Position numbers and translations under genes: made by a program. Shown piece by piece: positions 25,286 through 36,271 of a stretch of DNA of 64,000 bases. The notes under the pieces are model-generated. The model worked only from the letters and a program-made list of their open reading frames with translations, searched no databases and was not told where the DNA came from. How positions within the stretch are numbered: the first letter of the stretch is position 1; the number at the start of each line of letters is the position of its first letter. Source of the DNA: Cyanobacteria bacterium P01_A01_bin.123 (GTDB lineage: Bacteria > Cyanobacteriota > Cyanobacteriia > Phormidesmidales > Phormidesmidaceae); NCBI GenBank assembly GCA_039815185.1, contig JBCBZT010000012.1, positions 96,001-160,000 of the forward strand. The letters are read 5' to 3'.

Positions 25286-26281
25286 ATGCCTGGGAAACTA
25301 TTCAAAAAAATTGGCTTAACAGCCCTCTTTGTAGGGCTTTCCACTGCTTTTGCCACTGCCAACGCAGCTCCAGATCCAGTCTTTGATTCAGTGATTGACG
25401 ACATTCGCAGTGAGTTACCTGAAGGTTGGCAATTTCGTTTACCTTCAGAGATGCCACTAGACAGCGAAATCTATCCTTTTGTGAGTGAAGCGAGCGACAC
25501 CAAGCTGGTCGTCAGTCTGGGCATCACGCCCGACTGTACTTCAGCAGACTGTACGATCGGGGTGATTGGTGCCGTGGATGCAGGCGCAAGCAGTTGGCCT
25601 CCTGAAGGCGAAAGCGTGACACCCGTTGATCTGGGCCAAGATGAGCTAGGCCAAGACTTAGAGGGCTATTACCTGCTGCAAGGGGAAGGTACTGCCACGA
25701 ATCAACTCGTCATGTGGCAGCAAGATGGGCTCCTGTATGGCATTGTGACCGTTGCAGATGCGCTACCCCAAGAGCAGCTTGTGGCAGTGGCCAGTTCAAT
25801 GGCGAGTGAACCCCCCATTGACGGTGACGCATCGATGACAGAGCCGCCTATTGACGGTGAGCCCCCTGTTACAGAACCGCCCATTGATGGTGAGCCCCCC
25901 GTCACAGAACCGCCGATTACAGAACCGCCGGTTGACAGCGTACCCCCTGTGACCGAACCGCCGATCACCGAACCCCCTGTTGACGGCGTCCCCCCTGTGA
26001 CCGAGCCACCCATTGATGGTGAACCCCCTGTCACAGAACCACCTATCGATGGTGAGCCGCCTGTGACCGAGCCACCCATTGATGGTGAGCCGCCTGTCAC
26101 TGAGCCCCCGATTACAGAGCCGCCCATTGATAGTGGTGTACCCCCTGTCACTGAGCCACCCATTGATGGTGAACCCCCTGTGACCGAGCCGCCCATTGAT
26201 AGCGAGCCGCCCGTGACGGAACCCCCGATTGACAGTGAACCGCCTGTAACCGAGCCCCCGATTGAAGATGAAGCACCCTAA
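25286..26281 (+). CDS. exported protein with a Pro-rich acidic tandem-repeat tail
   Basis: Signal peptide ending ANA-A, a globular domain, then EPPIDGEPPVT repeats. Confidence 0.85.
   Translation: MPGKLFKKIGLTALFVGLSTAFATANAAPDPVFDSVIDDIRSELPEGWQFRLPSEMPLDSEIYPFVSEASDTKLVVSLGITPDCTSADCTIGVIGAVDAGASSWPPEGESVTPVDLGQDELGQDLEGYYLLQGEGTATNQLVMWQQDGLLYGIVTVADALPQEQLVAVASSMASEPPIDGDASMTEPPIDGEPPVTEPPIDGEPPVTEPPITEPPVDSVPPVTEPPITEPPVDGVPPVTEPPIDGEPPVTEPPIDGEPPVTEPPIDGEPPVTEPPITEPPIDSGVPPVTEPPIDGEPPVTEPPIDSEPPVTEPPIDSEPPVTEPPIEDEAP
25804..26265 (+). repeat. coding tandem repeat (33-nt EPPIDGEPPVT and 15-nt EPPIT units)
   Basis: Units are conserved at protein level with synonymous third-position variation. 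Confidence 0.9.
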
Positions 26282-26513: not shown

Positions 26514-27160
26514 CTATTCACCCACGTGCTTTTCTTCTGGAAAATAGCTTTTTAGATAATTGAAGGCGAGTCTCTGCGTTTCCTGCACGAGTCGTTGACG
26601 GAAATCAGGTGCTTGCCCCGAAGAAATCCAGAGTAAATTGCCCATTGCCTTGACGAGAACAAACGCGATCGCCTCGCAGTCTTCTGCACTTAAGACATCA
26701 TTCAGTTTAGAAAAAATCCTTACGAATGCCTGAACCAATTGATTATCCGTCGCTTCATTTATTTCAGGCATGCTGGTTGTGATTTCTACAAAAGTAGCGC
26801 GGTAGCCAGGATTTTCGCGAAAAAAGCCGTTGATTCCCTGGGTTAAGCGATTCACATACTCCGATAGGGGAAGTTGCATCATCGCTTCCGTCTCAAAAAC
26901 CTGCAACTGCTGGTTGAGTAAATCCGTATATTGCTCCGCCAAAGCCTGCAAAATCGCTGTCTTATCGGGAAAAACTGGTACAGCGTACCGATCGGTACCT
27001 CCGCTTCCGCTGCGATCTGTTTCGTGGTTGCAGCAGTATATCCCTGCTCAACAAATATTGCTGCCGCCATCTCCAAAATTCGATTAACCCGTTCTAAACT
27101 GCGGGCCTGCTTGGGCTTGCGCCATTTTCGCACGATCGTCTCTGAAGATTGTTCGGTCAT
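26514..27160 (-). pseudogene. TetR family regulator, frameshifted
   Basis: The HTH (ATTKQIAAEAEVPIGTLYQFFP) continues as DKTAILQALAEQY in another frame; one base is missing in the TTTTTCCC run near 26968-26975. Confidence 0.88.
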
Positions 27161-27175
27161 TTCGTCAATTCCTTC

Positions 27176-27229
27176 TTGACATAACATGAGCTTAACTCAT
27201 ATATTCAAAAACGTGAGCTTAACTCATAT
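27176..27229. promoter_or_regulatory. paired TetR-type operators overlapping a promoter
   Basis: ATGAGcttaaCTCAT (27186-27200) and GTGAGcttaaCTCAT (27213-27227); TTGACA-N18-TATATT on the + strand brackets the first. Confidence 0.8.
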
Positions 27230-27251: not shown

Positions 27252-27620
27252 ATGCCACATTCTGGGCAGCTTCGCATCAATCTATTTGGTCATCTGCGAT
27301 TAACGTTTGAGAACCAGCCGATTGCTAGTTTGCGGACGGATCGGTATCAATCGCTGTTGGCCTATTTTGTCCTTCAGGCGCGATCGCCTCAACCCCGCTC
27401 TCAGCTGGCTGGCTTATTTTGGCCAGATATTCCTGAGGCCAAGACTAAAGCCAGCCTTAGACAAGAGCTATACCGGCTCAAAAAGATGCTGCCCCAGGCA
27501 GATCAATTTTTACAGGTAACCGCAAAGACCGTGCAGTGGTTACCACAGCTTCCCCCAAACTCGTCTCCCAGTCAGAGTGACACGTGCTCAAACGGGGCTA
27601 GCTCAGGGATGGGTATTTGA
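27252..27620 (+). pseudogene. N-terminal fragment of a SARP/AfsR-type (wHTH-BTAD) regulator
   Basis: LRINLFGHLRL...LLAYFVL...RSQLAGLFWPD...ASLRQELYRLKK; similarity ends after about 100 aa. Confidence 0.7.
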
Positions 27621-27981
27621 TGAGGGTACCTCTCTACCTGTGCAGCTGCGAGTTCTAAACTTCTATGCCAACGGTGACATCACCTACGTAGCAAAAATCA
27701 ATGGTGTCGGGCTAAGAGAGGGAGATTTTGTTTCAAAAGGACAGCTCCTGGCTACGATTGACGACCGCAGACAAACCTCTAGCATCGAAACCGCAGAAGC
27801 TGATATTCAGGTGGCTATTAATCAGCGGGAGCAATCAGAAGCTTCGCTTTTACAGGCTCAAGCCAATTTAGATAAGACTGAATCTGATCTGGCCTTAGCA
27901 CAAACAGAACTCCAGCGTTATCAATCTCTGTTTGAACGAGGGGTAGTGGCAGAGAGCTATCGCGATGCTGGCGATAGCTAA
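27577..27981 (+). pseudogene. internal fragment of an RND efflux periplasmic adaptor (HlyD family)
   Basis: LREGDFVSKGQLLATIDD lipoyl half-motif plus a coiled coil; lacks the N-terminal anchor and the C-terminal half. Confidence 0.75.
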
Positions 27982-28293
27982 TGTTACTTACAACCCTTTT
28001 GCAGTTGCTCTGGTAACAGAATTGGCTCCCAAACCTTCTCTTGGCATTTATCTATCTCTAAATGCTCAATGCTGGACAATTGGTTACTGACTTGGCCCGC
28101 TAGTAGGGGGGTGATCACTCGCTCAAAATGAAAAAATTGCTCATGGGCTTTGGGCTACTGTGTCTCTCAGTACGCTGGTTGGAGTGCTTATGCTAAGGCG
28201 ACTCACCAGGTTGCAAAGGACAACTGACTGATTACAATTCGGTTGCATCTAATCAAGCAAATTCCAACCACATATGTGTCGCTTGCTGAAGCG

Positions 28294-28379
28294 AGCTAAC
28301 GGTGCAGTTGTGCGGCGGCCAATACTTTTGCATTGATGCCTGAATTGTAAATTCCGTCCGCTCCTGCGTAGGGTTAGAC
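28294..28379 (-). mobile_element. integron attC site (partly degenerate)
   Basis: Minus strand GTCTAAC-N5-GCAGGAGCGGACGG...CCGCCGCACAAC-N6-GTTAGCT: R''/R' boxes, 5/6-nt spacers and a GCGG(A)CGG/CCGCCGC stem with one extrahelical base; 86 bp. Confidence 0.75.
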
Positions 28380-28646
28380 GACAGGATCAAGCAGTTGTCC
28401 CATGTCTATCTCGGGGCCTATGTTAGCCTGAAATCGATTGCTTCAAGGAATTTATGAGAATGGTGCGGTCTTCAAAATTTAGTGGTGAGGCATTATGAAG
28501 TTACATCAGAGATCGCACCTTACAGCTAAGTTAGACACTTTGTCCTTTACATACGTTTCAACATAAAATTAGGTTCGCAAAAACCTATAATCCATGAGTC
28601 TTGTGCCTCAATCTGGTTTGTAAAGTGACTGGTTCTCACTCCTTTT

Positions 28647-30386
28647 CTAACTGATTGGTGAATAAGCTGTATCCAGGAGATCTAGTATAGTCTCAGCACT
28701 TCCCTGCCCAATCACCTGAATTTGTGGACCGTGAAGTGACTCTTTAAATATATCAATCTCTTCTTTGCTAGGGCATTCATGGGCCCCACCTAATTTCTGG
28801 CAAGCATATGCTGCCCAAGCTTGACTATCTTTCACAGCTCTTTGAAGATCGAAAAAAGAGAAGATTGACTCATGCTTGTCAAATAGATGTGATGCAATGG
28901 CTGCACCAAAAGCGTCCCCCGCACCTGTAGGATCTACAATTTTTCCTGGTTTATAAGGAAGTATTAAAATAAGCCCATCTGCACCATCTTTATAGCTACA
29001 GACTGCCCCTAATTTATCCATAGTAATTACACTTGTAACTCCTTTTTTGTTTAGAGAAGTTACAATCTCCTTCAAAGCAAGATCCTTCTTATCTACCTGG
29101 AATAAGCGCTTGACTTCATCTAGATTGAGCTGAAAAATAGAAATTTTTGGTAAAAACTCTTGCCAGAAGTCAAATCCATATTCGATTTGACTTCTGCCAA
29201 AATTAGCAAGGATATCAGCATTAGGGAATCTACTTATCAGTAGCTTTGTACATTTCCCTGAGCCTTCACTATCAGCATAAATATGCCCAATAATAACAGT
29301 CTTTATCCTCCTTTCAACTTCTTCCCCAAGGTCATCTAGGCGATTCGTAAGGTGGCGGAAAAAGTCTCCCTGCTCCACATTTTCGGTAAGAATAGTACGT
29401 TTCTCCCCTCTCACCAGAATCGTAGAGTAATTTGTTATTGCTCCAGGAATAAAAAAATTTTCAGAACCAACAAAATCATCAATTATTTTTGGCAATTTAC
29501 TCGTCCGTCTTATAGTGTTGAGAAGCTCTTCTTGAATACACTCTCCAAGACGATCCCGACCAACGCCAGGTATTGGGATTACTGGGATGCCAAAGTTCAT
29601 CAGGCGTATACTATAGTTAATACAGCTTCCACCAAAAAGTTTAATAGGATTAACGGTATATTTCCGATCTTCTTTGAACTCTAACGGTAGCTGAATTATA
29701 TTTTCACCATTGCTTCCACCAACAACAAGAACATAATTTTCCTGCTCACAAACATTTACTAGCTGGTTTTGTTTTCGGATAGGTAGCAATCTAGTCCAGT
29801 AGTCATCTTGCTGATGAGACTCTGTCTGAAGGTTTCGTAGTTCAGGGAGCTTCTCCAAAACCGCATAGGAAGGAAGAGCACCACCGCCTAAATCGCTAAA
29901 TTTATCACGAGTAAAATTAAGAATTCCGCATACTTTACCTGTTCGCTGATTCAACAAGGCAGCCCCGCTCATCCCTTTGCTCACCTGTCCCTGAGCAAAC
30001 TTGATGAATGCTGGTTTATCTCCCGTTAACCCCTCACACGTAAACGTCACTGGGCAACCGTTGGGAAAATTATCAGGATAGCCAAATATATATAGTGGGT
30101 CGCGGGTTTGAACTTCTTCACCCAAATACACACAGGACGGATTGACATTGGTTGGAAGCGTTACCCTAAGTAGAGCCAGATCCCAAGGATCAGGTAAAAG
30201 CTGCTCTACAATAGCTTCTACGTCGCTCTCTTGGTTTTGCAACCGTATTTGAACAAATTTCTCGTTCTGTACGACATGAGCACAAGTAAGAATATATTCA
30301 CGGGCCACAAAGAAACCTGTACCCCTTCCACAGGGACTTATGAGCTTTACCGTGCATAGCTTCAGCAGTTCTTCTAGGCGACTCAT
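28647..30386 (-). CDS. trypsin-like serine protease fused to a PfkB/ribokinase-family kinase
   Basis: Protease: GTGFFV, LTCAHVV, DLALL, GMSGAAL (H-D-S triad). Kinase: FGGSCIN, GVGRDRLG, LNLDE, VITMDKLGA, DPTGAGDAF. Confidence 0.9.
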   Translation of the reverse strand: MSRLEELLKLCTVKLISPCGRGTGFFVAREYILTCAHVVQNEKFVQIRLQNQESDVEAIVEQLLPDPWDLALLRVTLPTNVNPSCVYLGEEVQTRDPLYIFGYPDNFPNGCPVTFTCEGLTGDKPAFIKFAQGQVSKGMSGAALLNQRTGKVCGILNFTRDKFSDLGGGALPSYAVLEKLPELRNLQTESHQQDDYWTRLLPIRKQNQLVNVCEQENYVLVVGGSNGENIIQLPLEFKEDRKYTVNPIKLFGGSCINYSIRLMNFGIPVIPIPGVGRDRLGECIQEELLNTIRRTSKLPKIIDDFVGSENFFIPGAITNYSTILVRGEKRTILTENVEQGDFFRHLTNRLDDLGEEVERRIKTVIIGHIYADSEGSGKCTKLLISRFPNADILANFGRSQIEYGFDFWQEFLPKISIFQLNLDEVKRLFQVDKKDLALKEIVTSLNKKGVTSVITMDKLGAVCSYKDGADGLILILPYKPGKIVDPTGAGDAFGAAIASHLFDKHESIFSFFDLQRAVKDSQAWAAYACQKLGGAHECPSKEEIDIFKESLHGPQIQVIGQGSAETILDLLDTAYSPIS

Positions 30387-30389
30387 AAA

Positions 30390-30716
30390 TTATTCCCCTT
30401 GCTGTACTTCCCACTCTAAAGTGATTTCCAGATTAGCTTTGCTGGAACCTTTCACTATTACTGCAGTCAGTTGTCCAGACTCGATTGACAGTTCCATACC
30501 AAATTTTACGCTAGCTTTCTTAGGCTTTACCTTTTGAATCGGGGTGGCAATCATCTGTACCAAGCCCTCAATCGCATCTGCAACAGGCTGAAACTGCTTT
30601 TTATCAAAGCTCGCGCTGGCTTTCTCTAGTCCCGTTTGTGCTACCTCAAATTTGACAGTAGCCCCATTTGGCAGCTGAATTGGAATAGTATTACTGTAAG
30701 GATTAGTAAAGGTCAT
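30390..30716 (-). CDS. Trypco1 (CU044_2847-family) trypsin-co-occurring protein
   Basis: 108 aa with KPKKASVKFGMELSIESGQLTAVIVKGSSKANLEITLEW; ends 3 nt before the protease start. Confidence 0.85.
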   Translation of the reverse strand: MTFTNPYSNTIPIQLPNGATVKFEVAQTGLEKASASFDKKQFQPVADAIEGLVQMIATPIQKVKPKKASVKFGMELSIESGQLTAVIVKGSSKANLEITLEWEVQQGE

Positions 30717-30879
30717 ATTTGTAGATACCTAAGAAGATTAGATTACTATCTTAAAATATCCAGCAGTATTGGCTCCGATTGCGTTCAATGTATACATTGA
30801 TTTCGGCTTGGTAATCTAAATAATAGCAGCGTGCATCAGAGATTTGAGTCCAGTGCCTCATCGAGGTAAGAATGGGCCT

Positions 30880-30898
30880 AGTTAACTATCAATTAGAG
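30880..30898 (-). mobile_element. putative integron attI core
   Basis: Minus strand CTCTAA-TTGATA-GTTAACT has the same spacing as attI1 (CCCTAA-AACAAA-GTTRRRY); about 110 nt upstream of the intI remnant. Confidence 0.45.
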
Positions 30899-31006
30899 AG
30901 AACCATTCCATATAACTCCCTTAAATGGGTGTTTAAGTAGAAACTTTTCAGCCTAATTCCCTGATTTGGGCGTTTAGGTGGAAATACGTCAGCCTAATAC
31001 TCTTAT

Positions 31007-31210
31007 ATGGCTGTGCACCTAGCCAGCATCAATAAACGAGTCGGTTGTCATACGTTTCGCCATAGCTTTGCGACCCACCTTCTAGAAAATGGCTATGACA
31101 TCCGCACGATTCAAGAACTGCTGGGCCACAAAGATGTCAAGACAACAATGATTTGTACCCACGTTTTGAATCGTGGTGGTCGTGGCGTCAGGAGTCCCTT
31201 GGATGGCTAA
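31007..31210 (+). pseudogene. intI: integron integrase, C-terminal remnant
   Basis: [53 protein letters not shown] is the IntI-type C-terminus; only 67 aa remain and the catalytic Y of TMIYTH is C. Confidence 0.88.
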
Positions 31211-31230
31211 GCGGGAGTGCGAAAAACCTA

Positions 31231-33771
31231 CTATTCATTCTCCTGCTTCCACTCTGTCAACACCCCATACAATCCCCAAATCGCCATCGGTCGTAAATAA
31301 TGACACGCCCGAAACGTGCCCACCGCTGTGATCGCCTCTGGTGTGCGAAACTGCAACCCATACTCATAAATCTGCCGCACCACCGCCTTACTAATAGTCA
31401 ACGCCTCCTTAACCATGCCCGTATGGGCCATAAACGCAGCCAGACCAAAGTTAATCCCCGTCCACACTTCTAGCTGATGAGTATCGTCAAAATGCTCCGG
31501 TACGCCGTCTGGCAAAATGCCATTGGCCGCACCCACCGCCATGCCCAAACTAGCAGTGCTAAAATTCCCCGTTTGCGTCCCTTCAAATCGCTGGTTTTGC
31601 ACCACCGAATGGGTCTGCACATATTGATTGAACTTGACAAAACAGGCGTCGTAAATCGTTTCTAGTGCCGATTGGATATACTCTGGTTCTACCAAATCCG
31701 GCAGGCCCATCAACTGCGCCATGAACTGGCCGCAAAGTTGATCCGCCATCACTACTTCAGAGCCGCTGTGGGTATCCAGACGGTAGTAGCGACCGTTCCA
31801 CAGTTTGTTTTGATAGACAACTTGCCCATGCTTCAACCAGCGGCGATATTGGGTCAGTAAAATCGGCAGATTGCCGGGGGCACGCTGATGTTGGGTGAGG
31901 ACATCTGCGATCGCGATCGCAGCTTCCAACGCCGCCAACCATAACCCACCACAATAGGCACTGACGCCCTTAAGCTGCCAGTCATCAAAGGTTTGATCCG
32001 GCGCACCGCCGTTTTCAGGGATGCCGTCGCCGTCTTGGTCAAACCGCTTGAGATAGGTCAGGGTATCTACCACCGCAGGCCAGCAGTCCGCCAAGAAATC
32101 AACGTCGGTTTCTCCAGTCAACTTGTAGGCGCGGTACACCTGCAACACAAAATCACTACCCAGATCTTTCCACTGGTTGCAGTCTTGATAGCTGGTGTAA
32201 TTGGTCTTTTCAAACGGGGATTCATTCGGAGCCCCCAAATCGTGGGGGGTTGCCCCTTGCGCTTTGCGAATTGCGGGCGGGCTTTCTTCTCCCATCGTCA
32301 GGTAGTAGCCCACAATGCGCGGCGTCTGATCCGCTGTAGGAATGGCGCGGGCAAAGGCTCGAATCACCGCTTTTTCGAGTTCAGGCCACAGCATCAATAC
32401 ACCAAAGCCGCCATAGAGCCGGACGTCTAGACTTTCATACCAGCGGTAATCCAGGCACTCTAGCACTGCAAATTGCCCCACCGGGTCGCGATCGCTGGCG
32501 GCAGTCCATAACGTCCCGCCGCTGGTGAGGTCATATAGCTCATTGAACAGGGCCATTTTGAACCAGTTGGGCAAAGCGGTGCGATCGCAGATCGGATCTT
32601 GCCAATCTGCGATCGCTTGATGCCAAGCCGGATAGTCTTTCAAAGCTGTGATTGCGATTTGCCAAGCGTTACGCCCACTGCGATCAAAGAAATCCGTATA
32701 GCGACGGTAAGCGCTGGTACCCGCTGCAAACTCGGTTACGGGTAAATCCCAGGTGATAACGATGGGCACTCGGCGCGATTGTCCTGGGGCTAGGGTAAAT
32801 CGCAGCGCGATTGCCCCCCCAATTTGCTCCCCCGTCACCGCCGGATCGGCATTCCCCAGATTGGGTAGTGAGCCATCTTGGGCAAAGGATTGCCATAAAT
32901 CTGCGCCATTCCCGGCTGGGTTCCAGCGACTGTGGTGAAAGATCTCGGTGTTGGGGAGATTAGTGGTGGCGATCGCCCATTGTCCTTCCCCTTCCAGGCA
33001 AACTCTGTCCTCTGCCCGCGCCCCGTCCATCAAAATTCCAACAAACTTTGGATTGTCAACCCAGTGATTGGTACTGCCCTCGCTTTTGTCTAGGGGCGGC
33101 ACGTAATCATAAAACGGACTGCCGTCATCCCGCTGTTGCACACTGGGCGATTTGTTGGCATTAGTGAACCAGTTCACCATGTTCTGCCAAGACACCATCA
33201 GGCTTAGGGTCAGTGGCTTATCTGTTGGGTTTTGCACCGTCCACTCAAACACCGCAACGGGATAACTGGCTTCTTGGTAATTGTTGGGCCAGATCGGCGA
33301 AAACTGCTCGCAGGTCACCTTGGCATTGAACACGTTCTCATAGACAAATCCGCTGCGGGGATACAAGGCATAATAAGTCCCCGTAGATTTGGAAGGCTTA
33401 TCCCCTTGATCTGATGCGGGATACCACTGCCAGCTGGTTAAAGTACCATCCTGTGGTGGCTGGGTGCAAAGGGCATAGGCTTGAGGCGCTGCCCCTTCAA
33501 CCTGCTCAAACAGGCTAAACTGGCAAGCCCCAAATGACTGTTCCGCCGATTGATAAATGTGTTCGCCACCATCAATGTGCCAGAGGGTAAAGTCTCCTCG
33601 GGGCGATCGGCCGATGCAACCCGCCCCGAAACCACCCAGGGGGGCCCCGTGCCAGGGGCCATCGTCAAGGTTACTGGCATAGCGAACCACGTAGGAATTA
33701 GCCCAACCTTGACCAATCGGTCGGTTCCAGGCGCAGTCGGGGATGTTGGGGAAGATGTCTTGTTTAGCCAT
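31231..33771 (-). CDS. GH116 family glycoside hydrolase (glucosylceramidase-like beta-glucosidase)
   Basis: GAPLGGFGAG, ALFNELY, LECLDYRWYESLDV, PHDLG, DQTFDDW and FRTPEA motifs. Confidence 0.93.
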   Translation of the reverse strand: MAKQDIFPNIPDCAWNRPIGQGWANSYVVRYASNLDDGPWHGAPLGGFGAGCIGRSPRGDFTLWHIDGGEHIYQSAEQSFGACQFSLFEQVEGAAPQAYALCTQPPQDGTLTSWQWYPASDQGDKPSKSTGTYYALYPRSGFVYENVFNAKVTCEQFSPIWPNNYQEASYPVAVFEWTVQNPTDKPLTLSLMVSWQNMVNWFTNANKSPSVQQRDDGSPFYDYVPPLDKSEGSTNHWVDNPKFVGILMDGARAEDRVCLEGEGQWAIATTNLPNTEIFHHSRWNPAGNGADLWQSFAQDGSLPNLGNADPAVTGEQIGGAIALRFTLAPGQSRRVPIVITWDLPVTEFAAGTSAYRRYTDFFDRSGRNAWQIAITALKDYPAWHQAIADWQDPICDRTALPNWFKMALFNELYDLTSGGTLWTAASDRDPVGQFAVLECLDYRWYESLDVRLYGGFGVLMLWPELEKAVIRAFARAIPTADQTPRIVGYYLTMGEESPPAIRKAQGATPHDLGAPNESPFEKTNYTSYQDCNQWKDLGSDFVLQVYRAYKLTGETDVDFLADCWPAVVDTLTYLKRFDQDGDGIPENGGAPDQTFDDWQLKGVSAYCGGLWLAALEAAIAIADVLTQHQRAPGNLPILLTQYRRWLKHGQVVYQNKLWNGRYYRLDTHSGSEVVMADQLCGQFMAQLMGLPDLVEPEYIQSALETIYDACFVKFNQYVQTHSVVQNQRFEGTQTGNFSTASLGMAVGAANGILPDGVPEHFDDTHQLEVWTGINFGLAAFMAHTGMVKEALTISKAVVRQIYEYGLQFRTPEAITAVGTFRACHYLRPMAIWGLYGVLTEWKQENE

Positions 33772-33926: not shown

Positions 33927-34676
33927 CTATCGTCGATAAGGCACCTTCTGATCAATATCAATATCGTAAACAGAAATGGAGTTCGGCTGGGCACCTTTGG
34001 AGTTGAGGCTTTTGGCCATATTGAGAAACAAGCTGGGATCGCCAGTTTTGGGTTGGCTGTCGTAGGGGCGGAAGTTGCGGACAGACTCTTGCCAGATTGC
34101 TTGGGGAAAGCCTAATTGATTGCGATGATAGGCATCATACCGAGGCGAGGTAATGTTGAAGGGCGTTTCACCCAAAACACGACTGGGCAGAATCCGACGA
34201 CGGTGATAAGGAACGATATTTTCACCAAAGTTCTCGATGTATTCGTCACTGTTCAAGAGGTTATCAATAAACCCTTTAACGCCCTTGCTCATCACCACTG
34301 CTGACCAGGCAATCTTCTCCGCATTGCTGTAAACTCGACGCCCCAAAACCTTTTGAACACAGTGTTCAACAAAGCGATAATTACTATTTTTGTTGTAAAA
34401 ACTGTCGATAAAGGTATTCGACAATAACAATCCACGAACAAAGTCACGAACTGTGATCTGTCTATTGCGAAGTTGAGATTCCAGGACAATCTCACGATCC
34501 CATCTAAACGCATGAAAAAAGATTTGGCGATAGGCAGCATCTATGAGATTACCCATGTCTGTTGGCGAAAATAGATCATCCGTTGAATAAATAATAGCTT
34601 CGTCATCCCGAGCACCCAGTGCATCTACGCGTTGATTCGGACAAGAAGGGGAATACGCTAATAGAGGAATAGCCAC
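33927..34676 (-). CDS. cpcG: phycobilisome rod-core linker
   Basis: GTG start MAIPLLAY...NQRV; AAYRQIF and [19 protein letters not shown]; hydrophilic C-terminus, so not CpcL. Confidence 0.9.
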
Positions 34677-35053
34677 GTTTACACAAATCTCCAATTCTAT
34701 AAAACTTTGCCAAAAGCGTTCGAATTATACGCTAAGCGTGTAATTCGAATAATCATAATCTAGCAAGGGCTGAAGAGCCCTCCCTATTTAATGAGAGATC
34801 GAGTTGTTTAACGGCGGTTATTAGGAATCTCAAACTCGGCTTCTAGACTTTACGCAATCATACAAGGACGAGGGAATTTTAATCTGCATGCATCGAATAA
34901 AATGTTGCAGAATTTAACTTTAACGACCAAAGAAAACACTGAATAAATTTTTTGCAGCAAAAAATAACTCAATGATTTGTAACGCAAATGTTTCCCGCTG
35001 CATTGTACAAACAGATTACAAGGTTGTGAGTTTATTTTAACCAATAGCTTACT

Positions 35054-35101
35054 GTTTTCTGCACAAATACTGCACAAGTTTTCTGCACAAATACTGCACA
35101 A
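35054..35101 (+). promoter_or_regulatory. perfect 24-bp tandem duplication containing two L-box-like direct repeats
   Basis: (GTTTTCTGCACAAATACTGCACAA)x2 gives CTGCACA-N4-CTGCACA twice; the RcaC L-box consensus is TTGCACA-N4-TTGCACA. Confidence 0.65.
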
Positions 35102-35125
35102 ATCAAATAAGGAGATTTAGATCCC

Positions 35126-35644
35126 ATGCTAGACGCCTTTACTAAGGTTGTTTCCCAATGTGATGTTCGAGGTCAGTTTGTGAGCAATGCTCAAATTGAT
35201 GCGCTATTGGCCGTGGTTAAGGATGGTACGAAGCGCACCGATGTTGTGAACCGGATTACAAGCAACGCTTCCACAATCGTGACTAATGCAGCTCGTGCAT
35301 TATTTGAAGATCAGCCTCAGTTGATTGCTCCCGGCGGCAATGCTTACACTAATCGTCGGATTTCTGCCTGTATGCGCGACATGGATATCGTCCTACGCTA
35401 TGTCACCTATGCGGTGTTTTTAGGAGACGCCAATGTTCTAGAAGATCGCTGTTTGAATGGTCTGAGGGAAACCTATTTAGCGTTGGGAGTTCCTGGATCT
35501 TCCGTCGGCACCAGCATCCTTAAAATGAAGGAAGCTGCCATTGCCATTGCTAACGATAGTAACAATATCCAACCGGGTGATTGTAGCTCTTTGATGGCTG
35601 AATTAGCGGGCTACTTCGATCGAGCAGCAGCAGCAGTGAGCTAA
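35126..35644 (+). CDS. cpcB: phycocyanin beta subunit (divergent)
   Basis: 172 aa; [11 protein letters not shown]82 in [16 protein letters not shown] and C153 in GDCS. Confidence 0.93.
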
Positions 35645-35785
35645 AAGCCTGTGGACTGACGCACAAGCTTAAGACAGCATTCTCAAAGTCTGTCATGACA
35701 AGAAATATATTCAAGCTAAAGCGGTTTCTCGCTCAAGCTTTTTCCAGATCAAAACTTTCTGAACTATTAGGGAGATATTATTTCA

Positions 35786-36271
35786 ATGAAGACGCAATTA
35801 ACTGAGGCGGTTGCCGCAGCTGATTCTCAAGGCCGTTACATAGGCAACACTGAACTTCAAGTTGCATTGGGTCGTCTGCGGTTGGCTACGGCTGACCTAG
35901 AAGCAGCCAAGGCTCTGGGTGCTAAAGCTTCACAATTGGCTGAAGGCGCAGCTAATGCGGTCTACCAAAAGTTCCCCTACACCACCACCATGCAAGGCAA
36001 CAATTATGCCTCTGATGCTCGTGGCAAAGCCAAGTGCTTGCGCGACATCGGCTACTATGTGCGGATGATTCAATACTGTCTGATTGCAGGTGGAACAGGC
36101 CCTGCTGATGATTACCTATTGGCCGGTCTAGCTGAAATGCACAGCAGCTTTGAATTGGTTCCCAGTTGGTATGCTGAAGCGCTCAAGTATATCAAAGCTA
36201 ACCATGGTTTGACGGGTGACCCTGGGCTTGAGGTCAACTCCTACATCGACTACATCATCAACGCACTCTAG
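35786..36271 (+). CDS. cpcA: phycocyanin alpha subunit (divergent)
   Basis: 161 aa; [16 protein letters not shown]84 in [14 protein letters not shown] and YIKANHGL. Confidence 0.93.

Follow-up and report, generated by a model that had tools for sequence, protein, structure and literature searches.

What does a PfkB-type kinase domain contribute to a protein whose N-terminal part is a trypsin-like protease and whose gene directly follows a gene for a Trypco1 protein? The question is raised by a two-gene cassette located in a 64,000-nucleotide stretch of DNA, referred to as the window, which covers positions 96,001 to 160,000 of contig JBCBZT010000012.1 in the assembly GCA_039815185.1 of Cyanobacteria bacterium P01_A01_bin.123. 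The first-pass annotation of the window described the cassette as a conflict-type system, comprising a 108-aa Trypco1-like protein and, after a gap of 3 nt, a protein joining an intact trypsin triad to a complete PfkB kinase (GG..N, NxxE, and DPTGAGDAF with the catalytic Asp), and proposed that Trypco1 gates the protease, which would then release or activate the kinase. Every one of these components was recovered in our analysis, and the assignment to conflict systems holds in kind. We put forward tentatively, as an assignment that may well be correct, that the kinase domain is an ATP- and ligand-dependent input switch, the protease a transducer, and Trypco1 the executioner. As judged from sequence comparisons, the cassette also exposes a wider unannotated family of TIR-, PNP-, CHAT-, and EAD7-PfkB proteins.

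The fusion gene (28647-30386, minus strand) encodes 579 residues according to the open reading frame (ORF) list and lies downstream of the Trypco1 gene, with a junction that reads TAA-ttt-ATG; ORF and domain scans limited the operon to these two genes (Table 1). Since the Pfam profile PF00294 matched residues 406 to 536 only (profile positions 175 to 297 of 302; E value of 1.3e-14), a fold test of the kinase was needed. Residues 214 to 579 were folded with AlphaFold2 (AF2) from an alignment of 28 relatives, which gave a model with a predicted local distance difference test (pLDDT) value of 91.9 and a predicted template modeling (pTM) score of 0.92. A structure search with this model returned 460 PDB chains at E<=0.001, the top matches being ribokinases. 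The model superposes over about 335 to 364 columns on ribokinase, pseudouridine kinase, and sulfofructose kinase, with 15 to 21% identity and template modeling (TM) scores of 0.70 to 0.83 (normalized by target length), indicating that the predicted PfkB-fold domain is complete. Like E. coli RbsK (1RKD), human RBKS (5C3Y), pseudouridine kinase (7VVA), and sulfofructose kinase (7AG6), it combines a complete fold with the GG, NxxE, and DxTGAGD motifs, present here as G252-G253..N257, N421..E424, and D485-PTGAG-D491, in addition to E228; the codon of the catalytic Asp, D491, occupies positions 28914-28916. Unlike these metabolic kinases, the module is fused to conflict-system domains and exceeds them by ~60 aa, having an additional helical insert and an extended C terminus. 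All 20 NCBIfam equivalogs listed were far below their cut-offs (the best, ribokinase TIGR02152, reached 47.3 versus 299.65 bits), and none of the families of PADLOC-DB v2 matched the module, whether in the window protein or in its stand-alone, EAD7-fused, and N-extended forms. The ESM Atlas contained generic PfkB clusters only, the nearest being a 372-aa cluster mostly from Thermodesulfobacteriota.

The module is found behind many different N-terminal domains. Both whole-database searches split the query at residues ~205/214, and residues 214 to 579 matched as one block in proteins of 366 to 654 aa with 31 to 72% identity; these matches delineate a distinct PfkB subfamily of ~365 aa. We assembled 91 module proteins, of which 79 are database entries and 12 are translations of retrieved loci; several of these 12 are near-duplicates of one clade, so that the counts are not independent. 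The N-terminal partner identified by Pfam was TIR in 18 of the 91, PNP_UDP_1, EAD7, or trypsin in two each, and CHAT or DUF4062 in one each. An N-terminal extension of ~70 aa or longer that belongs to no Pfam family was present in 23 proteins, all of which were scanned, and a short extension in two; the remaining 40 had no N-terminal partner. Module architectures longer than 654 aa (P0004) did not turn up, which is weak evidence. PF13365 and PF00294 occurred together only in the window protein (P0001) and in P0002 among the 120 proteins listed, and P0001 alone spanned both halves among the best 150 of 2,348 matches; because two-domain matches outscore single-domain ones, further fusions should appear among these. 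The trypsin-PfkB fusion is rare, with two 90%-identity clusters, in line with the remark of the first-pass annotation that a PfkB partner was not known to it.

In a quick IQ-TREE maximum-likelihood search with Shimodaira-Hasegawa approximate likelihood ratio test (SH-aLRT) support, treated as unrooted, the partner types were interleaved, and the window protein and P0002 nested within the PNP-PfkB clade (SH-aLRT of 100), beside DUF4062 and TIR forms. Rooting with the two ordinary PfkB genes of the genome was rejected, as their branches of 6 to 8 changes per column made the placement unreliable. Carriers of the module are 3 of 173 genomes in the order of the window, all of one family, and their heads are trypsin (window), TIR (L001/G811), and PNP (G828), the last gene being very probably that of P0003, with which it shares its Pfam scores. 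Alignment by blastn of the window with the PNP-PfkB gene gave 75.9% identity over 1,117 bp, which comprise the kinase module alone: the match stops at codon ~214-217 (about 29737-29745), that is, at the domain border, and the flanks of the two loci have no DNA similarity. The trypsin, TIR, and PNP versions and this break of the DNA match at the domain border provide a clear natural example of effector-head exchange. Synteny of the HlyD- and winged helix-turn-helix (wHTH)-like fragments of the window with the HlyD, AcrB, and response-regulator genes beside the PNP-PfkB gene was considered and rejected, there being no similarity outside the module.

The heads exchanged on this module are effector-type domains. 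PADLOC models matched the protease, TIR, PNP, and CHAT heads only, under the names ThsB/PDC-S66, SAVED_TIR, chat/SAVED_CHAT, and CBASS "Effector PN-superfamily." In effectors of the cyclic oligonucleotide-based antiphage signaling system (CBASS) and of type III CRISPR, a TIR, CHAT, or PNP-like head is joined to a SAVED or CARF receptor. The same set of heads is swapped here on a constant C-terminal module, a likeness that is positional only and that, by analogy with SAVED/CARF, is the pattern of a receptor or switch. Unlike in those systems, the constant part here is a PfkB kinase whose catalytic site is fully conserved, and neither a cyclase nor another signal synthase is nearby.

The N-terminal half of the window protein matched Trypsin_2 (PF13365; residues 22 to 155, E value of 4.4e-16), and the triad H37, D69, and S140 (codons 30276-30278, 30180-30182, and 29967-29969) was kept in 21 of the 21 protease rows of the alignment. 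Among the matches listed, residues 1 to ~205 were 55 to 68% identical to cyanobacterial trypsin-NACHT, -NB-ARC, -TPR, -WD40, -HEAT, -CHASE2, and -FGE proteins. PfkB occupies here the slot C-terminal of the protease that is filled by one of these seven domains in the relatives. The full-length model comprised two confident domains of undefined relative orientation (pTM of 0.66), joined by a linker (residues 195 to 213) with a pLDDT below 50.

Information on such pairs comes from two sources, a survey (Kaur et al. 2020, PMC7159879) and a bioRxiv preprint (10.1101/2025.11.14.688446). In the survey, trypsin-like peptidases have Trypco1/2 as partners in the conflict systems of multicellular bacteria, and effector-associated domains (EADs) are treated as homotypic adaptors. 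According to the preprint, Pepco, which corresponds to Trypco1/2, forms sodium dodecyl sulfate (SDS)-stable 9- to 10-mer beta-barrels in Streptomyces. The adjacent Avs4 protease cuts SsPepco after Ile97 (site I97-R98), thereby removing a tail of ~2 kDa, and Pepco is toxic only after this cut, being activated as a beta-barrel pore. The preprint also designates the protease-fused domains as sensors and reports that the Pepco-protease pair is exchangeable for a nuclease head on the same sensor. The protease therefore activates Pepco in the Streptomyces pair, which is the reverse of a Trypco1 protein gating the protease, and by analogy the wiring initially proposed for the cassette is probably reversed.

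The resemblance of the window cassette to SsPepco-SsAvs4 of Streptomyces subrutilus, as presented in the preprint, extends to a small Trypco1-family gene immediately upstream of the gene for an N-terminal trypsin-like protein with an intact Ser, to a modular protease head, and possibly to the C-terminal Ile, which here lies in the final beta-strand ahead of a short polar stretch. The 108-aa protein matched Trypco1 (PF19493) over profile positions 1 to 97 of 98 (E value of 7.3e-18; 65.4 bits versus a cut-off of 24.6) and NCBIfam NF041216 (68.5 bits versus a cut-off of 23), and it matched 0 families in PADLOC-DB v2. Its end, ...NLEI98-T99LEWEVQQGE, comprises the last strand and then a 10-aa polar tail. 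In an alignment that did not include SsPepco, the column of I98 contained I or V in three of the four same-genome paralogues and E in the other. What sets the cassette apart from the Pepco-protease systems of the preprint is a PfkB-fold kinase in place of a signal transduction ATPase with numerous domains (STAND), FGE, or peptidoglycan-binding sensor; the word "kinase" is absent from the main text of the preprint. With the VMAP/MoxR-vWA and EAD-coupled systems of PMC7159879, the cassette shares the Trypco1-trypsin pairing, a cyanobacterial host, and a common pool of TIR, PNPase, caspase, and EAD modules. It differs from the ternary VMAP-MoxR-vWA system in that vWA, MoxR, VMAP, and STAND domains were all absent from the ORFs between 23394 and 36271 in the Pfam domain scan, whereas locus L105 of the same genome has VMAP and MoxR.

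The main text and two supplements of PMC7159879 mention neither "PfkB" nor "ribokinase"; these supplements also lack "Trypco1" and may not be the architecture tables. We found no description of a PfkB-fold kinase in TIR, EAD, Pepco, or phage defense systems in the searched literature, and the "pfkB" of the Pseudomonas KKP module is a gene name for a Ser/Thr kinase. With no PADLOC model for the module, the PfkB partner thus appears to be undescribed, as had been suspected. Four further Trypco1 loci are present in the same genome, namely, L105 (C130), L106 (C35), L107 (C120), and L108 (C99). At L105, the Trypco1 gene lies inside a Trypsin-VMAP plus MoxR plus FGE system. Elsewhere, one gene is divergent from a gene for a caspase-nSTAND1-pentapeptide protein, one is upstream of genes for a caspase-TIR-AAA_35 protein and then an AAA_35-TPR protein, and one is without a protease partner in the scanned ORFs.

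If Pepco does the killing and is activated by the protease, the kinase is the sole candidate for the input. The cassette would then be a self-contained, horizontally acquired, abortive-infection-type device made of three parts. The Trypco1/Pepco protein would be a latent executioner, its beta-barrel assembly becoming membrane active once the C-terminal tail is cut off, and the N-terminal trypsin-like domain would be the transducer that makes this cut, cleavage and activation by the protease being carried over by analogy from the work on the homologous pair. The C-terminal PfkB domain would act as the input switch in the slot held elsewhere by STAND NTPases, TPR/WD40 repeats, or other sensors. 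We infer that the kinase responds to a ligand trigger and that the protease is activated by oligomerization: the lid would close upon binding of ATP and of a small molecule with a hydroxyl group, such as a sugar, amino sugar, or nucleoside that changes in level on infection, and lid closure would drive or alter oligomerization, so that the protease domains meet and become active. Turnover or reset would come from phosphotransfer, as it does from nucleoside triphosphate hydrolysis in STAND switches. We favor the input-switch assignment because the kinase sits in the sensor slot and is the constant partner of rotating effector heads.

Several observations weigh against this assignment. According to PMC7159879, EAD7 "primarily recruits other effectors," in which case EAD7-PfkB would be on the effector side; the point is softened by the use of "effector" in the same source for STAND and repeat proteins. 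The family includes seemingly ordinary metabolic kinases, in GlmS-like/PyrG/GlmM or GlmM/NagB-like contexts, and its conserved pocket suggests a common cellular substrate rather than a phage-specific one. The neighborhoods of fused forms were inspected at three loci, all cyanobacterial; none of these has a signal-making enzyme beside it. Pepco cleavage has been shown in only one Streptomyces pair, and the Trypco1 protein of the cassette differs from SsPepco by a tail of 10 aa versus about 20 and by a Thr rather than an Arg after the Ile. Finally, strict conservation of the catalytic and sugar sites is equally expected of an output enzyme.

This conservation extends to nearly the entire family. 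The catalytic Asp was kept in all 91 module proteins, the residues of TGAGD in 88 to 91, the NxxE Glu and the GG in 90 each, and a Glu aligned with ribokinase Asp16 in 88, Ser or Gly occupying the position of ribokinase Lys43; the catalytic and substrate-side residues were kept across every partner class. A complete fold with a conserved catalytic set fits a working nucleotide-dependent switch, for which, by analogy, this degree of conservation would be comparable to that of the NTPase sites of STAND switches. The main rival reading, which retains the core of the first-pass proposal, is that the PfkB domain could be an output enzyme that on activation phosphorylates a sugar or nucleoside, leading to depletion of an essential pool, a toxic product, or a signal. 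The kinase would be freed by self-cleavage of the linker or would act within the intact protein, and Trypco1 and the protease would operate in parallel or upstream. In the TIR and PNP fusions, the head could supply a ribose-bearing substrate; TIR and PNP domains both act on ribose-containing nucleotides. We regard an output role as unlikely, although it is kept alive by the catalytic conservation (the phosphotransfer set is present in 88 to 91 of 91 proteins whatever the architecture), by the EAD7-PfkB forms, EAD7 being a class said to recruit effectors in PMC7159879, and by a disordered linker that contains an Ile-Arg pair. The nearest solved folds, ribokinase and pseudouridine kinase, also point in this direction. 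The pair, I203-R204, is kept in P0002 and consists of the same residues as the SsPepco site, and together with the disordered linker it gives a weak hint that the protease might release or activate the kinase; I[RK] occurs 7 times in the 579-aa protein, and one occurrence in a 20-aa linker is therefore unsurprising. Moreover, an output kinase would leave the cassette without an input domain, trypsin and CHAT heads supply no kinase substrate, and the killing function is already assigned to Pepco (10.1101/2025.11.14.688446). Close kinase relatives seem to be harmless metabolic enzymes, which makes intrinsic toxicity of the reaction unlikely.

The metabolic contexts just mentioned bear on another reading, in which the module is a metabolic or regulatory kinase without immune function that couples a sugar or amino-sugar signal to proteolysis in the physiology or development of filamentous cyanobacteria. 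A scan of genome contigs with the generic motif D[PTS]TGAGDAF gave 2 true family members among at least 80 loci, and a motif-trimmed alignment, when used to scan metagenomes, picked up 14 loci, of which nearly all belong to a single Syntrophus-like stand-alone clade. This clade of ~376-aa proteins (11 rows, support of 100) is encoded in an operon comprising genes for a 1,250-aa GATase plus SIS protein (GlmS-like, with large extra regions), CTP synthase (PyrG), a GlmM-type mutase, and the ~376-aa kinase; in a variant, the order is GlmM, a NagB-like gene, and the kinase. The context looks like amino-sugar or nucleotide metabolism in essentially one lineage. The operon could encode an amino-sugar or nucleotide-sugar route not yet described, and it offers a clue to the substrate of the family. 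The first-pass annotation had considered that residence mainly in sugar-metabolism operons would speak against an anti-phage role; such residence was observed for the stand-alone Syntrophus-like clade and not for the fused forms. In addition to the GlmS-like/PyrG/GlmM or GlmM/NagB-like operons of stand-alone members, the non-immune reading can draw on the lack of recognized defense genes at the three cyanobacterial loci, the neighbors of the TIR- and PNP-fused genes being RidA, TauD, PLD, a response regulator, and AcrB, and on the lack of module matches in viral-contig, plasmid, and phage collections. We nevertheless consider it improbable in view of the partner domains, the patchy occurrence, and the conservation between strains: Trypco1, TIR, PNP, CHAT, EAD7, and DUF4062 are hallmark conflict-system domains, and the distribution is very patchy. 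Besides the 3 of 173 genomes of its own order, carriers amount to 2 of 401 sampled cyanobacterial genomes, that of the window included, and, in the phylum to which a Syntrophus-like carrier belongs, likewise to 2 of 401; no copy of the module was detected in the single other genome (85% complete) of the genus that the window comes from. Foreign composition, an adjoining integrase remnant, and rapid exchange of the head among close relatives likewise oppose a housekeeping role.

A generalization of the input-switch assignment, which we consider possible but doubtful, is that the PfkB-like module defines a class of immune receptors. In these, an active kinase would replace the STAND NTPase or SAVED/CARF domain, would control TIR, PNP, caspase-type, and trypsin/Pepco effectors, and would sense infection through a sugar, amino sugar, or nucleoside that newly arises or builds up in infected cells and that the kinase would bind and phosphorylate; in that case, the ~70-aa head would be a new adaptor domain. 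Pepco-type protease-activated pairs are among the commonest outputs of bacterial immunity and have hitherto been wired to ATPases that sense proteins or nucleic acids. If the proposal is correct, infection would be read off a small-molecule pool by an enzyme fold borrowed from central metabolism, and a single answer as to ligand and product would explain an entire unannotated family now labeled "carbohydrate kinase" or "TIR domain protein."

The long N-terminal extensions, found in about a quarter of the family, are of 65 to 157 aa, mostly ~70 aa and helical. Their carriers include P0131, P0142, P0136, P0147, P0143, P0171, P0177, P0167, P0198, P0176, P0170, and P0199. Most contain the motif IPY.G..[ED]..YG.D, of which a fuller form is ...F..FC.....IP.A.LK.IPY.G.S..E..YG.D.E.LI..... 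Pfam searches at E<=1 with the N-extended P0142, P0147, and P0160 gave no match to the extension, and a search for the ~70-aa extension on other proteins, limited by shared words, returned the query alone. One possibility is that the extension is an EAD-like adaptor domain not described before.

The composition of the locus points to a foreign origin. The operon has a G+C content (GC) of 0.416 versus 0.499 for the window, and GC at third codon positions is 0.33 in the fusion gene and 0.40 in the Trypco1 gene, compared to 0.45 to 0.60 in four neighboring genes. HIP1 (GCGATCGC) occurs at 90 sites in the 64-kb window versus 0.94 expected by chance; the gap around the cassette (27387 to 31907), of 4,527 bp, is the longest of the window, and about 0.17 gaps of such size are expected under a Poisson model. 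The AT-rich and HIP1-free character first ascribed to the cassette is thereby substantiated. Based on the low GC, the lack of HIP1, and the adjoining integrase remnant, we infer that the HIP1-free stretch is a horizontally acquired island.

Gene fragments are present on both flanks of the cassette, which raises the possibility that it is an inert passenger, i.e., an intact-looking remnant of a decaying island that has ceased to be expressed or to function in this host. Promoter-like matches in the region showed no excess over shuffled sequence (10 versus 6.7 +/- 2.2), and neither did the terminator scan; the lack of promoter excess would suit an inert remnant. Both reading frames are open, with every catalytic residue present, and the gene is kept in a variant from a second study at 95 to 99% identity and in P0002, a protein of the same 579-aa architecture with 83% identity that is encoded by one full-length open frame in a separate assembly. 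This retention argues for purifying selection, and we regard the inert-passenger explanation as very improbable. The fusion is not an assembly chimera, an eventuality raised at the outset: in addition to P0002, contigs from three further sequencing runs, which belong to the study that is the possible source of the window, bridge the domain junction (29744-29804). In the run from the second study, both halves were recovered in pieces, with no contig across 29788-29991.

Table 1. Positions of the cassette, of neighboring features in the window, and of related operons
Feature	Coordinates	Strand	Basis or remark
Trypco1/Pepco gene, 108 aa	30390..30716	-	ORF, Pfam PF19493, NCBIfam NF041216
Spacer ttt from Trypco1 stop to fusion-gene start	30387..30389	-	3 nt
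Trypsin-like serine protease domain, aa 1-195	29802..30386	-	Trypsin_2, fold, triad
Interdomain linker, aa 196-213, predicted disordered	29748..29801	-	Low pLDDT
PfkB-like kinase module, aa 214-579 plus stop codon	28647..29747	-	Pfam, AF2 fold, motifs
HIP1-free, low-GC stretch holding the cassette	27388..31906	.	HIP1 scan, composition
Tyrosine integrase C-terminal fragment, 67 aa	31007..31210	+	PF00589, profile 118-169 of 172
Two overlapping fragments, 122-aa wHTH (Trans_reg_C-like) and 134-aa HlyD-like	27252..27981	+	Matches weak, below curated cut-offs
TetR-family gene in two overlapping frames (TetR_N/TetR_C_15)	26514..27187	-	Pfam
GH116 (beta-glucosidase 2/glucosylceramidase-like), whole	31231..33771	-	Directly past the integrase fragment
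Phycobilisome linker and two phycobiliprotein genes	33927..36271		Beyond GH116
Syntrophus-like operon loci	L002:114-8116, L096:109-8116, L101:5-8101, L095:4454-8116		

The description of every neighbor as broken stands for the immediate flanks and not for the next genes out, since the GH116 gene, a histidine kinase gene, and the phycobilisome genes are whole. The split TetR gene has a HIP1 site inside and is therefore probably native, the split being due to a frameshift or a sequencing error. The 64-kb window contains no tRNA gene, so that no att site can be proposed.

Three observations were made on genes near the cassette or its relatives. In another cyanobacterium (L090:5548-7058), a 138-aa protein is encoded 3 nt upstream of a stand-alone module; its C-terminal hydrophobic stretch resembles a transmembrane helix, it has no Pfam or PADLOC match, and the pair may be a two-gene form of the system. 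Downstream of a TIR-PfkB gene (L113:4733-8874, minus strand) lie genes for a 481-aa protein with a weak ATP-grasp match, a TauD-family dioxygenase, and a 481-aa PLD-family protein. In the window itself, a 331-aa protein encoded at 25286-26281 (plus strand), with a weak extensin-like match below the cut-off and a local GC of 0.57 to 0.59, has a C-terminal half made of a near-perfect run of EPPVTEPPIDG-type repeats.

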